From: an uncultured Bacteroidales bacterium
GTDB taxonomy: Bacteria; Bacteroidota; Bacteroidia; Bacteroidales; VadinHA17
DNA length: 64,000 bases
Direction of reading: 5' to 3'
NCBI GenBank assembly: GCA_963806555.1
Contig: CAWDYR010000016.1
Coordinates: 98,108 to 162,107, forward strand
A program made the position numbers and the translations under genes. Shown one piece after another: positions 3,958 to 9,275 of this stretch (its first letter is position 1; the number at the start of each line of letters is the position of its first letter). The notes beneath the pieces are model-generated. The model was not told the DNA's origin. It worked only from the letters and a program-made list of their open reading frames with translations, and made no database searches.

Positions 3958-3996
3958 TTAATTATTGTAGAAAAACAATCATTATATTAATTTTTT

Positions 3997-4009
3997 ACCG
4001 CGTAGCGGT
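3997..4009. repeat. REP-like hairpin accgcGTAgcggt upstream of the Y1 transposase gene
   Basis: Perfect 5-bp stem around GTA, with the tetranucleotide GTAG spanning the loop and stem. It lies 73 bp upstream of ATG 4082. Confidence 0.55.
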
Positions 4010-4081
4010 TAAACAATTGCTTAGAATTCAGAGAATTATTAAATTTGTTCTAGCTGCATTAGTAATTAAAAAATTCAATCT

Positions 4082-4555
4082 ATGAAGCCTGGAACATTCA
4101 CCCAAATTTATGTTCAGTTGGTATTTGCTGTAAAAAACAGGGAAACCGCGTTAAGAAAGGAAATCAGACCTCATGTATTTGAGTATATGAGTGGAATCCT
4201 GACAAATCAGAAACATAAATCCATTATAATTAATGGACTTTCAAATCATGTCCATATTCTCCTTGGATTGAATCCTTCGATTTCTGTTTCAGATACTGTC
4301 CATGAAGTAAAGAGAAGTTCAACGCTATTTATTAACAGAGAGCGACTCTGCTTTGGCAGATTCTCCTGGCAGGAAGGCTATGGAGCATTCAGTTATAGTC
4401 GTTCGCAAATTTCCAATATTTATAAATATATTGAAAATCAGGAAGAAACTCATAAATTTAAAACTTTTCAAGATGAATATGTTCAATATCTTAAAAAACG
4501 TGAAATGGAATTTGATGAACAATTCTTATATGAATTCTGGGAAAATCCTGTTTAA
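4082..4555 (+). CDS. IS200/IS605-family Y1 (HUH) transposase, REP-associated tyrosine transposase (RAYT)-like
   Basis: Intact 157-aa ORF. It has an HUH-type motif HVHIL and the tyrosine region YKYIENQEETH typical of Y1_Tnp/RAYT proteins. There is no tnpB partner. The gene is visibly more AT-rich than the flanking genes and has small GTAG-loop hairpins on both sides. Confidence 0.8.
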   Translation: MKPGTFTQIYVQLVFAVKNRETALRKEIRPHVFEYMSGILTNQKHKSIIINGLSNHVHILLGLNPSISVSDTVHEVKRSSTLFINRERLCFGRFSWQEGYGAFSYSRSQISNIYKYIENQEETHKFKTFQDEYVQYLKKREMEFDEQFLYEFWENPV

Positions 4556-4606
4556 CCTCTTCGAGGTAATAAAACCATTTTTAATATCTCCGGCTACAAT
4601 AGTTTA

Positions 4607-4910: not shown

Positions 4911-5334
<424 letters not shown>

Positions 5335-5598
5335 CCTAAAGAAACGCAGTCAGCAATAAATCAGTTGATTGCGTTTTTATTTATATGACAATTTCCCCAC
5401 TAAGTCCCCATAAGGCTAAATAATCGTTAAAAATCCGCCTTTTCTTAGCACAAACTCGGCCTTTTAATTCCGGGATCTGCTCCTTAACGATGGCAGTTCC
5501 ATGCCCTAATCACTTATCAACGCAAATTAAAAACACTCCAAAAGTTCTTTTTTACCGGGTTATTATAAGGTAGAGTTGCGAATAATCAAAAAAAAACC

Positions 5599-5606
5599 TA
5601 CATTTG
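5599..5606 (+). promoter_or_regulatory. candidate Bacteroidota sigma-A -7 box (TAcaTTTG)
   Basis: It matches the TAnnTTTG consensus and lies 24 bp upstream of ATG 5630. Confidence 0.4.
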
Positions 5607-5629
5607 CAACAGTACATTAAGACACAACC

Positions 5630-5803
5630 ATGGAATCGAAGCAAATTACATTATTGACTGTTTTGGCAAAAAAAATCAGGACAGAAAAGAAAGACAAAGC
5701 CAGGGTTGTTGCAACATTGCGATCAGCAAAAATTTTAACTAAAGGTGGTAATTTTACAACACATTTTAGTACCTTAAATAAGCTAGTCACATCCTCTAAA
5801 TAA
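5630..5803 (+). CDS. 57-aa basic protein, first gene of a coupled two-gene cassette (candidate antitoxin/regulator)
   Basis: The ORF ATG 5630 to TAA 5801-5803 reads MESKQITLLTVLAKKIRTEKKDKARVVATLRSAKILTKGGNFTTHFSTLNKLVTSSK. It is below the ORF-track size cutoff. Its stop overlaps the next start (TAATG). Confidence 0.45.
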   Translation: MESKQITLLTVLAKKIRTEKKDKARVVATLRSAKILTKGGNFTTHFSTLNKLVTSSK

Positions 5804-6435
5804 TGTATCGTAGGAGACCAAACCTACAAATTGGCTTTCATGGTTGTGATGAAACCGTAAGGCACGATTTAGTTACAAAACCAGACTTAGTAAAAAAAAG
5901 TCAAGAATCATACGATTGGTTAGGTCACGGATTCTACGTCTGGGAGAATAATTACCAAAGGGCCTACCAGTGGGCGAAAGATAAAAAAGCTAGAGGTTCA
6001 CTTAATATTCCATCCGTAGTAGGTGTTGTATATCTATTAGACTATTGCCTGGATTTTACTGATTCTGAATTTATAGGAATTATTGCTCACTACTATGATT
6101 TAATGAAGAAGGATTTGCGACTTGCGGGCAAGGAGCTACCTAAAAACAAAGACCTACCTAAAGATGAATATCACGATTTGATAAAAAGAGAACTGGACTG
6201 TGCTGTGATCGAATATTTACATCAAAAGATAGATGAACAAATAACATCAGATATTTCTAAAAAGGGATTTAGTGAATACAAACACTTTGATACAGTTAGA
6301 GGCATCTTTACCGAAGGTGGCCCGGCATTTGAGGGAGCTGGAATTCAAGCTAAAAACCACATACAGATTTGCATAAGAAACCTTTATTGTATAAAAGGGT
6401 TCTTTTCCCCAAGAAAAGAGATAAAATTTCTCTAA
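5803..6435 (+). CDS. hypothetical protein with H-Y-Q ADP-ribosyltransferase-like motif order (DUF3990-like from memory)
   Basis: Intact 210-aa ORF. The motifs appear in the order seen in PARP/diphtheria-type ART cores: IGFHGCD, then WLGHGFYVWENNYQRAYQWA, then NHIQICIRN. The gene is AT-rich. The family assignment is recollection, not a search result. Confidence 0.45.
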   Translation: MYRRRPNLQIGFHGCDETVRHDLVTKPDLVKKSQESYDWLGHGFYVWENNYQRAYQWAKDKKARGSLNIPSVVGVVYLLDYCLDFTDSEFIGIIAHYYDLMKKDLRLAGKELPKNKDLPKDEYHDLIKRELDCAVIEYLHQKIDEQITSDISKKGFSEYKHFDTVRGIFTEGGPAFEGAGIQAKNHIQICIRNLYCIKGFFSPRKEIKFL

Positions 6436-6743
6436 TTGCCGTGTAGAACCAAGATAATAATGATCAATTGATGGACATGACTTTGTATATTTCTTCACCG
6501 GGAGAGCTTAACTTTGAATAGTATAACATGCCGAGGAAGAAAAAGAATCACTATTTATGGCCCAGGTATGCAACTTGTGGGTTTTCATTTTGAAGTTAGC
6601 GGTCCTAGATCAAGACAGTGACCGTACTCTTGTTCAGTTGTTTAAATGAAGGTCTAATCCTTAATACAGCGAACAGAAAAGCCATCAACTTTATCATTAG
6701 GGCCAAACGAAGTTAAAAAGCCTTGCACGAAGTGCCTGGTTGA

Positions 6744-9275
6744 TCAGTGCAAAAACGTAACATCACCGACTTTATCAAAATAATCTCCGTCGGCATACCT
6801 GCCTGAAGCTTTCCATACATATACTCCCTGAACGGCCAGATTGCCGTCCCTGCTGTAGCCATCCCATCCCTGGTAAAGATCCTTGCTTTCATAAATCAAT
6901 ACCCCCCATCTGTTGAATATCTGTAGCTTGTATTCTATTACATTTTCATAGAAAGGCCTGAACACAAAGTCCATTTCCGGATAACAGCCGGGTCTCCATA
7001 CACCGCCTGTTGGCCCGGTTTCATTCCATTTGAAGACATTGGGGAAATCGATGGAACCTATTTTCCAGTCAACCCTTACGGGAGTCAAAAGCTTCGCAGA
7101 ATCGATACAACCGTCTTTTGATGTTACCGTAAGAGTGACAGTGAAACTGCCCTGTTCCAGATATTTGTGATATGGGTTCTTCTCATCAGAGGTATCCCCG
7201 TCGCCGAACTGCCAGAAGGAAATCGAATCATACATGCTGTTGTTTGAAAAGACAACTATCTGTTCGTTGTTGATGACATTCGTGGGATAAGCCTCCAGAA
7301 TAGCAGTGGGGTTCTGATATACCGTTATAATTCCGTTATGTACCGCTTCTCCGGCAATATTATAAACGATAAGCTTCACTATATAGCTGCCGGGCACATA
7401 GTATGTATGGACAGGATTTTCCTTGACGGAGAATTGGCCGTCACCGAAACCCCAGATATAGGTCTCGCCATAAAGGCTATTATTGGTGAATTGCACAGTG
7501 AGGGGTGAACAGCCGACGGTGTCGGGTGAAAAGTCGGCAACCGGAAAAGGAGGCATAACAATCTGTATATGAATAGTGTCAACTCCATAACAACCATATT
7601 TGTCCATTATGGTCTCGTAGGTTATCACATGCGTGCCAAGCCCGGCAGCAGCAGGATCAAAGACATAACCGGTTACTGCAGGTCCGTAAAAGATACCTCC
7701 TGCCGGTGTGGCGTTCAGGTTGATTGCAGGACTGTTGATATACACCGTCCCTACCTTGTCGATATCCACAACGGGTATCGGAACCACGGTTATATCTTCG
7801 GTGTCGGAGTCCTTGCAATCAGGGTTGGCAATACTGTAGCTTATAATATGGGTGCCGGCTCCTGCAGCTGCAGGATCAAAAATATTGCCCGAGACACCCG
7901 GACCAGACCACACACCTCCAAGATCATGGGCGGTAAGTGTTATCGGAGCGCTGTTTATGCACAGGGTATCCATCGTATTGATGGTTGCATCGGGCGTTGC
8001 CACAGTAATGGTTATCTGATCATTGTCCATGCATCCGTTGGAATCAACTATCTTATAGGTTATCGGATGGTTGCCATAGCCGGATATGGCCGGATTGAAA
8101 GTATCGCCAGTCACTCCGGGCCCTGACCAGATACCCCCCATGGATGGAGCAGTGAGAGCGATTATGGTATCGGTTATACACAATGTAGGAATGGGTGTAA
8201 TGGTTGCATCAGGCACGGGTACAACCTTTACTATTGCCGTGTCAGCATCACTGCAGCCTTCCGCATTTGTTATCTCATACCTGATTATATGATTGCCCAC
8301 CCCGGCTACAACCGGATTGAAGGTATTTCCCGATACACCCCGCCCCGACCAGTCACCACCGGAATCATGGGCTGTCAGAGTCACAGGACTGGCATTGGCA
8401 CACATTCTGGTTAACGGATCGATAGTGGCATCGGGATAATCGACAATCAGGATAATTGCTGTTGTAACCACAGGAGGATGGTCCCCGTTCTGCCGGTCCC
8501 TCGGAGGACCCGGTATGTTCGGATCATCATAAGGATTGCAATAATTCCAGTTTCTCAAAGTGACCTGGAAATACTCACCTATCTGTTTATCAGAGGCTAC
8601 ATTTATTACCTTCGACATAACACCTGAACCGGTTACAGGTCCTGTCAGCGTGATTACATTATCGGTATAGGGGTAACTCCTCGATCTGCCCTCAATGGTC
8701 ACCGGCAGCCCGGTCATTGTGATCTCGGTGCCATAAATCCACTGTATCCATCTTGTATTAACATTCGGATTGTCTCTCTCCTGGGGAGGTACACAGTTGA
8801 ACTGGGTAAGATCCTGAAAACGGACGTCCGCACTGTTCCCGAAACATATCGGATAAACCAGAGGATTGATGTGCATATGCCCTCCGTTGTGATCATCGTC
8901 ATCCCACACTGTCACTATCTGTTCCTGGGTGGATGAAGTACACAGAACACCATTTACTATCAGGGTTGCCTGCGGGTGATAATTGCATACATTCCCCCTC
9001 GATGTGTATGTATTTGTAGAAGTTGCCTGAAACACACCAGGACCCGACTGAATTGCAGGAACCGTTTCGATAAACCCGTTACCCCAGTCATACCGTATAC
9101 TTACCGGCGCACCTGCATTGGTCACGCCAGTGTAGCTGACATTCCAAATTGCGGTGACAGGAGAACACAACCGGTCGGGTGTGATGTTGTTTGCCTTGGA
9201 GATTATAGTACAATTCTGCCCAAAAATGCCGGGGTGTAATAGTAGCAGAAACAGATATAGTAACCACTTCCTCAT
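6744..9275 (-). CDS. secreted multi-repeat protein with PKD domains and a T9SS type-B (gliding-motility) C-terminal sorting domain
   Basis: Intact 843 aa with an N-terminal signal peptide. It has four repeats of about 73 aa (LC..PITLTA..GG.WSGPGV.G..F.P...G.G.H.I.Y). Two PKD-like modules are present (WGFGDG..NPVHTY; WQFGDGDTSDEKNPYHKY). The C-terminal FPNVFKWNE...IFNRWGVLIYES...GWDG...GVYVWK...GDVTFLH resembles the type-B CTD. Confidence 0.8.
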   Translation of the reverse strand: MRKWLLYLFLLLLHPGIFGQNCTIISKANNITPDRLCSPVTAIWNVSYTGVTNAGAPVSIRYDWGNGFIETVPAIQSGPGVFQATSTNTYTSRGNVCNYHPQATLIVNGVLCTSSTQEQIVTVWDDDDHNGGHMHINPLVYPICFGNSADVRFQDLTQFNCVPPQERDNPNVNTRWIQWIYGTEITMTGLPVTIEGRSRSYPYTDNVITLTGPVTGSGVMSKVINVASDKQIGEYFQVTLRNWNYCNPYDDPNIPGPPRDRQNGDHPPVVTTAIILIVDYPDATIDPLTRMCANASPVTLTAHDSGGDWSGRGVSGNTFNPVVAGVGNHIIRYEITNAEGCSDADTAIVKVVPVPDATITPIPTLCITDTIIALTAPSMGGIWSGPGVTGDTFNPAISGYGNHPITYKIVDSNGCMDNDQITITVATPDATINTMDTLCINSAPITLTAHDLGGVWSGPGVSGNIFDPAAAGAGTHIISYSIANPDCKDSDTEDITVVPIPVVDIDKVGTVYINSPAINLNATPAGGIFYGPAVTGYVFDPAAAGLGTHVITYETIMDKYGCYGVDTIHIQIVMPPFPVADFSPDTVGCSPLTVQFTNNSLYGETYIWGFGDGQFSVKENPVHTYYVPGSYIVKLIVYNIAGEAVHNGIITVYQNPTAILEAYPTNVINNEQIVVFSNNSMYDSISFWQFGDGDTSDEKNPYHKYLEQGSFTVTLTVTSKDGCIDSAKLLTPVRVDWKIGSIDFPNVFKWNETGPTGGVWRPGCYPEMDFVFRPFYENVIEYKLQIFNRWGVLIYESKDLYQGWDGYSRDGNLAVQGVYVWKASGRYADGDYFDKVGDVTFLH

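Follow-up and report, generated by a model that had tools for sequence, protein, structure and literature searches.

An overlapping gene pair in an uncultured Bacteroidales bacterium encodes a predicted CmdT-related ADP-ribosyltransferase and a conserved small basic partner: a candidate toxin-antitoxin module

What do two overlapping genes in a low-GC stretch of a Bacteroidales genome encode, and could they form a toxin-antitoxin or defence module? The pair lies in a 64,000-nucleotide (nt) stretch of contig CAWDYR010000016.1 from an uncultured Bacteroidales bacterium; this whole stretch is called the window below. A small open reading frame (ORF) of 57 amino acids (aa) is followed by one of 210 aa, and an initial annotation made from the sequence alone had read the larger protein as an ADP-ribosyltransferase (ART) with an H..Y..Q motif series and the pair as a candidate toxin-antitoxin or defence cassette. 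Very probably, the 210-aa protein is an ART related to CmdT and its conserved partner is genuine. The reading favoured here for the pair as a whole, with a probability of roughly 0.6, is a type II toxin-antitoxin or abortive-infection module that is related to CmdT and lacks a chaperone, organised as an autonomous, mobile bicistronic operon with its own promoter. Both ORFs were confirmed on the forward strand of the window (Table 1), and the overlap described in the initial annotation was borne out when the coordinates were re-read from the sequence: the TAA stop of the small ORF (5801-5803) shares one base with the ATG of the large one (5803-5805), giving TAATG.

Profile searches of the 210-aa protein gave no significant Pfam or NCBIfam match. 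The PADLOC profile PD-T4-9_A, which represents CmdT, matches it with an E-value of 6e-7 over residues 8-62, corresponding to positions 5-59 of the 191 in the hidden Markov model (HMM). The same profile finds the gene in a six-frame search of its own genome (E=1.6e-5) and is matched by 49 of 58 diverse relatives, with a best E-value of 1e-9; faint Pfam matches in these 58 were to PARP in two sequences and to Exotox-A_cataly in one. Using hhalign, the family profile was aligned with two Bacteroidota CmdT-like toxins located in operons with SecB-like chaperone genes, one at locus L104 (gene order toxin-antitoxin-chaperone, T-A-C) and one at locus L105 (A-C-T). The probabilities were 96.8% and 96.2% (E=2.6e-10 and 2.5e-9), and the aligned region includes the H-G and G-x-G-x-Y-F-W-E motifs as well as the helix and strand that come next. 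By these sequence comparisons the closest characterised relative of the 210-aa protein is CmdT (PD-T4-9_A), which had not been named in the initial annotation.

PDB sequences were searched with phmmer and with a profile hmmsearch, and nothing significant was found. An Exotoxin A match was in the correct register and lacked significance (E=0.14-0.4), and a match to ornithine aminotransferase (E=0.045) was judged spurious. A sub-cut-off Pfam match to DUF1408 (E=0.016), located in a helical insert of the protein, was rejected as noise.

PD-T4-9 is CmdTAC, an anti-phage toxin-antitoxin-chaperone system of E. coli, in which CmdT ADP-ribosylates mRNA and blocks translation during infection by T-even phages (PMC9519451, PMC11618068, bioRxiv 10.1101/2024.02.24.581848). 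The catalytic triad of CmdT has been reported as HY-[E,D,Q], with Y41 as the catalytic tyrosine (PMC11618068). Folding and accumulation of CmdT require the antitoxin CmdA, and on its own CmdT is non-toxic (PMC11618068, PMC11445053).

The operon at L105 (1483-2734, Bacteroidota genome G179) is a permuted CmdTAC operon, in which an 81-aa antitoxin-position gene and a SecB-like gene precede the CmdT-like toxin gene; it adjoins a helicase-like gene. The C-terminus of its toxin, PEIQICV, resembles the HIQICI motif of the 210-aa family.

The three motifs that had been picked out in the 210-aa protein are all present, namely IGFHGCD (residues 10-16), LGHGFYVWEN (40-49) and NHIQICIRN (185-193), and their H-Y-Q series is conserved across the family. 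Among 122 sequences, Y45 is found in all 122, H13 in all 116 that are ungapped at this position, and Q188 in 118, with E in its place in a further 2. Sixteen further residues are at least 93% conserved (G14, S33, W39, G41, G43, W47, E48, R53, G74, C82, N115, R129, D132, R166, E171 and H186). Because the three residues are nearly invariant, the H..Y..Q series is judged to be real and to be the signature of the family. The conservation pattern fits the HY-[E,D,Q] triad of CmdT.

An AlphaFold model built on 122 diverse sequences has a predicted local distance difference test (pLDDT) value of 96.1 and a predicted template modelling (pTM) score of 0.90. Six strands were assigned in the model, three of which hold the triad residues (8-16 with H13, 43-48 with Y45, 186-191 with Q188), the others being 70-78, 164-169 and 197-201; a two-helix insert occupies residues ~88-154. 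Using Foldseek against the PDB, ranks 1-7 are all members of the ART clan, comprising NatT of NatRT, AcrIF11 (6kyf, an ADP-ribosyltransferase), Tpt1/KptA and PARP1. NatT, from the NatRT toxin-antitoxin complex, scores best (8qnl_C; E=0.05, template modelling (TM) score 0.38), and no match reaches E<=1e-3. At lower ranks, the PARP-domain proteins SRO1 and RCD1 are intermixed with unrelated folds. Against the viral models of BFVD, ART-PolyVal-like and unnamed phage proteins were matched with E-values of 7e-5 to 1e-3 and probabilities of 0.96-1.0. Because these structure matches are consistent, if individually modest, and are joined by sequence homology to CmdT, the 210-aa protein is predicted to have the ART fold. 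The proposal of an ART fold with Q in place of the catalytic E thus gains support from the CmdT HMM, hhalign, and AlphaFold with Foldseek.

The 57-aa protein starts with ATG and is basic, with an isoelectric point (pI) of 10.9 and a family median of 10.1. A direct database search for it returned three entries only, since such small ORFs are rarely called. When 80 genome loci of the family were read as DNA, 78 were found to carry an ORF of ~54-64 aa ending between -8 and +18 nt from the enzyme start, and the remaining two also carry a small ORF, one of them with a GTG start, which brings the count to 80 of 80. The gaps to the enzyme gene are mostly -1 to +5 nt. Mismatch rates at codon positions 1, 2 and 3 of the small ORF are 0.44, 0.33 and 0.61, a coding-like pattern. 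Presence at every locus and this substitution pattern indicate that the pairing is not due to chance, and the claim of a conserved, coupled partner, for which non-conservation had been named as a refutation, holds.

The partner family shares the motif Q.kLL..LAkk...sL.sA[KG]IL.k.G.fT..Y.NL, which also occurs in small ORFs upstream of enzyme homologues on Acinetobacter and Rhizobium plasmids. Sequence distances between loci are correlated for the small and the large protein (r=0.81; Mantel 0/999), and the small protein diverges ~1.6 times faster than the enzyme. No family was found for the small partner in Pfam (30 partner sequences), PADLOC or the PDB, and NCBIfam likewise gave no relevant match to the 57-aa protein. 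Scattered, faint matches to winged-helix-type Pfam families in a few small partners were non-significant and were rejected. Likeness to CmdA was also rejected, as hhalign gave less than 1% against two CmdA-position proteins and a PADLOC PD-T4-9_B match was absent. The first small gene at L105 holds an L..vGIL stretch that is faintly like the partner motif (hhalign E=0.076, non-significant).

DNA similarity among the cassette loci is limited to 5597-6440, that is, to the promoter and the two genes; beyond these, comparison of the cassette loci revealed neither terminal repeats nor any further conserved DNA, and across the 80 loci there is no conserved neighbouring gene besides the pair. The operon in the window consists of two genes only, the next gene downstream being convergent and encoding an 843-aa protein of the type IX secretion system (T9SS) type. 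In 55 of 77 loci the small ORF is preceded, at a distance of 23-38 nt, by the Bacteroidota-type promoter motif TAnnTTTG, which is found in 5% of random 73-nt windows.

An 18-nt inverted repeat (5623-5640 and 5831-5848) was observed in the cassette, by which the start region of the small ORF (CACAACCATGGAATCGAA) can pair with the enzyme codons for GFHGCD. The predicted RNA duplex has an energy of -20.9 kcal/mol, compared with about -6 for other windows of the gene. Over 76 loci, pairing between these two regions averages -8.7 against -5.5 for controls (Wilcoxon p=5e-11), and part of this signal is trivial, ATGGAA being complementary to TTTCAT. The repeat might tune translation of the partner.

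At 90% identity the 210-aa family falls into 4,616 clusters, and at 50% it has 2,069 representatives (E<=1e-3); its members are annotated as hypothetical proteins. Its distribution is patchy. A homologue is found in 4 of 61 sampled related genomes, this one included, and only two other sampled genomes of the same genus have one, each 48% identical, while elsewhere in Bacteroidota, in different orders and families, there are homologues that are 78-87% identical. Homologues were also found on 70 plasmids, mostly Proteobacterial (38-41% identity), of which 46 are conjugative or mobilizable; Acinetobacter plasmids of 8.5 kb and 13 kb in this set carry the same pair. The patchy distribution, the plasmids and the variable flanks argue for a selfish two-gene module that spreads horizontally. 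In 63 of 78 loci the gene upstream is co-oriented, at a median of 177 nt from the cassette, and a preference of the cassette for terminator-proximal intergenic sites is suggested. The 119 nearest-neighbour proteins include a few integrases, helix-turn-helix (HTH) proteins and methyltransferases, and the enrichment in defence islands that the initial annotation had put forward as a check was not seen among them.

The co-oriented upstream gene is often a housekeeping gene, encoding tyrosyl-tRNA synthetase (TyrRS) in five loci and MiaA in three. In the collection of phage genomes, the sole match to the enzyme is weak and partial, to Synechococcus phage S-B28 (MK016662.1 / NC_048171.1, 24419-24649), where a hypothetical protein is 30% identical to enzyme residues 13-86 (E=3e-4).

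A coupled, conserved gene pair and a patchy, mobile distribution that includes plasmids are what was looked for in a type II toxin-antitoxin module, and both were found. In the proposed mechanism, the 57-aa basic helical protein would be translated first from the shared mRNA, with the enzyme following by translational coupling. The 210-aa enzyme would bind nicotinamide adenine dinucleotide (NAD+) through H13 and Y45 and transfer ADP-ribose, with Q188 occupying the catalytic E/D/Q position. If CmdT is a guide, the most likely target would be a nucleic acid (RNA), and growth arrest would result. The small protein would bind and neutralise the enzyme and may also aid its folding, as CmdA does for CmdT. 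If the faster-evolving partner were lost, whether under stress, upon phage infection or when a plasmid is lost, the enzyme would be set free, which could lead to plasmid addiction or abortive infection. Of these elements, the toxicity of the enzyme, its neutralisation by the partner, its substrate and any role in defence are only inferred.

Several points weigh against this toxin-antitoxin reading. Q at the third triad position could mean weak or altered transferase chemistry. Similarity to CmdT is restricted to the N-terminal half of the protein (HMM positions 5-59; ~65 hhalign columns), and every Foldseek match in the PDB has an E-value of at least 0.05. The partner family is strongly basic (median pI ~10), unlike many antitoxins, which are acidic, and it has no similarity to CmdA. 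The flanks of the cassette are mostly housekeeping genes (TyrRS, MiaA, RecA, transporters) and not defence genes. Finally, CmdT is toxic only when CmdA is co-produced, so the role of the partner may not be one of simple neutralisation (PMC11618068, PMC11445053).

This last point leads to the alternative that survives best, an unlikely one, in which the small protein is an obligatory positive partner (a folding helper, a substrate adaptor such as a nucleic-acid-binding subunit, or a transcriptional regulator) and the enzyme is active only in the complex. The dependence of CmdT on CmdA for folding and accumulation, and its lack of toxicity alone, would be the precedent (PMC11618068, PMC11445053). 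The very basic character of the partner, the faint winged-helix-type matches in a few members and the tight co-divergence of the two proteins fit this as well. However, an upstream position, translational coupling and faster evolution form a classic antitoxin signature, and the winged-helix-type matches are scattered and non-significant. A dual role of the small protein is possible.

It is rather improbable that the enzyme is instead an NAD+ glycohydrolase toxin that depletes NAD+, as the RES-domain toxins MbcT and NatT do, with the small protein still acting as an antitoxin. NatT is the best fold match in the PDB, and the catalytic acid is replaced by Q188 in nearly all sequences of the family; in some ARTs, Q in place of the catalytic acid favours hydrolysis or weak transfer. 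The NatT match is weak, however, whereas there is sequence homology to CmdT, which has been demonstrated to be an RNA transferase and in whose family Q is tolerated here. The conserved arginines R53, R129 and R166 would also suit a nucleic-acid substrate.

The pair could also encode a non-toxic accessory enzyme that merely spreads horizontally, such as an RNA 2'-phosphotransferase-like enzyme, an Arr-like ART acting on small molecules or antibiotics, or a regulatory protein modifier. This is very unlikely. Tpt1/KptA is among the fold matches, the surroundings are of housekeeping rather than defence-island type, and the enzyme is 70-87% identical across orders, all of which would fit; but the Tpt1 matches cover ~75 columns with E-values of at least 0.7, and Pfam matches to Arr or Tpt1 are absent. 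Against it also stand three traits that addiction or defence modules typically have: a patchy distribution, occurrence on small plasmids and an obligatory mini partner.

The initial annotation had also pointed to a resemblance to DUF3990, a family said to pair with DUF3791. Such pairing is true of a genuine DUF3990 locus, L101, where a DUF3791 gene lies just upstream, but this is a different family. The two types of pair are alike in belonging to the ART clan, in having motifs of the H-G / G-x-G-F-Y / Q-Y-C type and a small co-oriented upstream partner, and in being uncharacterised; they differ in that the DUF3990 protein is shorter (~155 aa) and has no helical insert, and in that the partner families are unrelated. 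Pfam PF13151 (DUF3990; gathering threshold 32.2 bits) does not match the 210-aa protein at E<=1, any of 58 relatives at E<=0.01, or its own genome in six frames at E<=10. In precomputed Pfam assignments, none of the 120 listed homologues has any family, while all listed true DUF3990 proteins have PF13151. Against an alignment of 35 DUF3990 sequences, hhalign gave a probability of 7.6% (E=0.0046), with only the N-terminal H and Y motifs in register. DUF3791 as the identity of the small partner was rejected, hhalign giving 0.1% against a verified DUF3791 protein (PF12668 E=1.2e-16). Membership of the cassette in the DUF3791-DUF3990 pair family (PADLOC candidate PDC-M13) is therefore largely refuted, despite the label "DUF3990 domain-containing" on a few close homologues in UniRef, a weak PDC-M13B match to the 210-aa protein (E=0.0027), the shared register of the H and Y motifs and the same small-upstream-ORF layout at L101; at most, DUF3990 is a distant clan relative.

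At L101 (1274-2183, Bacteroidota genome G183), the DUF3791-DUF3990 pair is followed by a third, overlapping ORF of 87 aa that has no Pfam family, and this unit may have three genes.

Compared with known systems, the favoured toxin-antitoxin module is closest to CmdTAC. The two share a homologous ART domain, the HY-[E,D,Q] triad with the tyrosine in a G-x-G-x-Y-F-W-E context, a toxin of ~190-210 aa, a small helical partner and a compact mobile operon. They differ in that the cassette lacks a gene for a SecB-like chaperone (CmdC), whereas the L104 and L105 operons carry SecB-like ORFs. CmdA has N-terminal helices and a long disordered chaperone-addiction tail and is encoded downstream of the toxin; the partner in the cassette lies upstream, is 57 aa long, has no such tail and shows no detectable similarity to CmdA. 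The 210-aa family also has its own helical insert and a C-terminal H-I-Q-I-C-x-R-N motif.

DarT/DarG and the RES-Xre systems (MbcTA, ParST, NatRT) are likewise two-gene modules with NAD+-using ART-clan toxins. The cassette has neither the macrodomain of DarG nor an Xre/DUF2384 antitoxin, the RES motifs differ from H-Y-Q, and there is no sequence match. The ART-PolyVal family (PF18760) provides the best structural matches in the viral library and belongs to the same H-Y-type ART clade. Its members are domains of giant multi-domain proteins of phages and conjugative elements, whereas the 210-aa enzyme is a standalone protein with a mini partner and has no PF18760 match.

ADP-ribosyltransferases that target RNA or DNA, such as DarT, CmdT and RhsP2, have lately become a rapidly expanding subject in research on bacterial immunity and toxins. 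In the literature, no paper was found that uses the term "CmdT-like" or that gives DUF3791 or DUF3990 a function. What is new relative to the literature is a putative two-gene, chaperone-free CmdT-type ART toxin module with a new partner. Members of the 210-aa family are numerous, compact and highly conserved, and they have no Pfam, NCBIfam or product annotation. If the toxin-antitoxin or abortive-infection reading is true, the CmdT warhead also works without a SecB-type chaperone sensor, under a different 57-aa controller, which raises the questions of what the trigger is and which target is modified. Annotation pipelines would then gain a name for thousands of pairs now listed as hypothetical proteins.

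A broader proposal is more tentative and rather doubtful. The cassette may represent an unnamed cross-phylum family (at least 4,600 clusters at 90% identity, ~2,000 at 50%) of chaperone-free, CmdT-type nucleic-acid ADP-ribosyltransferases on Bacteroidota chromosomes and Proteobacterial plasmids, controlled by a new type of ~57-aa mini-partner unrelated to CmdA, DarG, Xre-type antitoxins and DUF3791. In such a family the partner would perhaps combine the roles of inhibitor, folding helper and nucleic-acid-binding regulator, and the H-Y-Q residues would specify a base or RNA modification unlike those of known ARTs.

The site of the cassette in this genome was analysed along with the tRNA gene beside it (Table 1). 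The last 17 nt of the tRNA-Pro recur at 5146 and 5318, and a 17-mer that forms the left arm of the tRNA-Pro terminator hairpin (AAAAAGCCTTGCACGAA) occurs three times, at 4992-5008, 5168-5184 and 6715-6731. The third of these 17-mers, just short of the stop of the convergent 843-aa gene, is the marker of the insert's right-hand end. Since the third copy of the tRNA-Pro 3' end abuts foreign sequence and the terminator arm resumes at 6715-6736, the insert interrupts a third repeat unit. Similarity to relatives in the genus resumes at ~6730-6754.

Table 1. Features of the cassette and its surroundings, in coordinates of the window.
Feature	Position	Strand	Evidence
tRNA-Pro(TGG), followed by two tandem ~176-nt units of its 3' end and terminator	4911..4986	+	repeats D1, D2
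Third copy of the tRNA-Pro 3' end (AATCCTGCCACCCCGAC), left edge of the insert	5318..5334	+	
Low-GC insert of 1.38 kb carrying the cassette, absent from genus relatives	5335..6714	.	
-7 promoter motif, Bacteroidota-type TAnnTTTG (TACATTTG)	5599..5606	+	31 nt upstream of the small ORF start
57-aa basic partner protein, putative antitoxin and/or folding partner	5630..5803	+	80/80 loci; coding substitution pattern; co-divergence
210-aa protein with predicted CmdT-like ADP-ribosyltransferase fold	5803..6435	+	PD-T4-9_A match; hhalign; AlphaFold; Foldseek; residue conservation
Half copy, left arm of the tRNA-Pro terminator (AAAAAGCCTTGCACGAAGTGCC), right edge of the insert	6715..6736	+	repeat D3

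The GC content of the insert is 36%, compared with 43% for the window, and GC at third codon positions (GC3) is 0.31 and 0.28 for the cassette genes, compared with 0.49 for the neighbouring 843-aa gene. The orthologue of the 843-aa gene in four species of the genus (L096, L097, L099 and L100) is followed by a tRNA-Pro on the same strand after a gap of ~190-1,500 nt, without the cassette. The tRNA-Pro segment in these species is inverted relative to the window, and repeat units are also present there. This cassette-free, inverted arrangement shows the site to be a rearranged hotspot, of recombination and inversion, and the cassette to be an acquisition. In this genome, the cassette is thus the mark of a small insert that was acquired horizontally at a rearranged tRNA-Pro hotspot. 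As the cassette is an acquired low-GC insert, the reading of the pair as a candidate toxin-antitoxin or defence module, first put forward in the initial annotation, is reasonable. The accompanying description of an AT-rich islet at a tRNA gene is correct for this locus and does not extend to the family, as just 1 of 80 other loci has a tRNA at 1.5 kb or less from the cassette.

A second low-GC patch (3991-4573) lies just upstream of the tRNA-Pro. It holds a solitary IS200-like Y1 transposase gene at 4082-4555 (PF01797 E=2e-24), with a weak match to the REP-associated tyrosine transposases, and 25-nt inverted repeats bracket this gene on the two sides (3991-4015 and 4549-4573).

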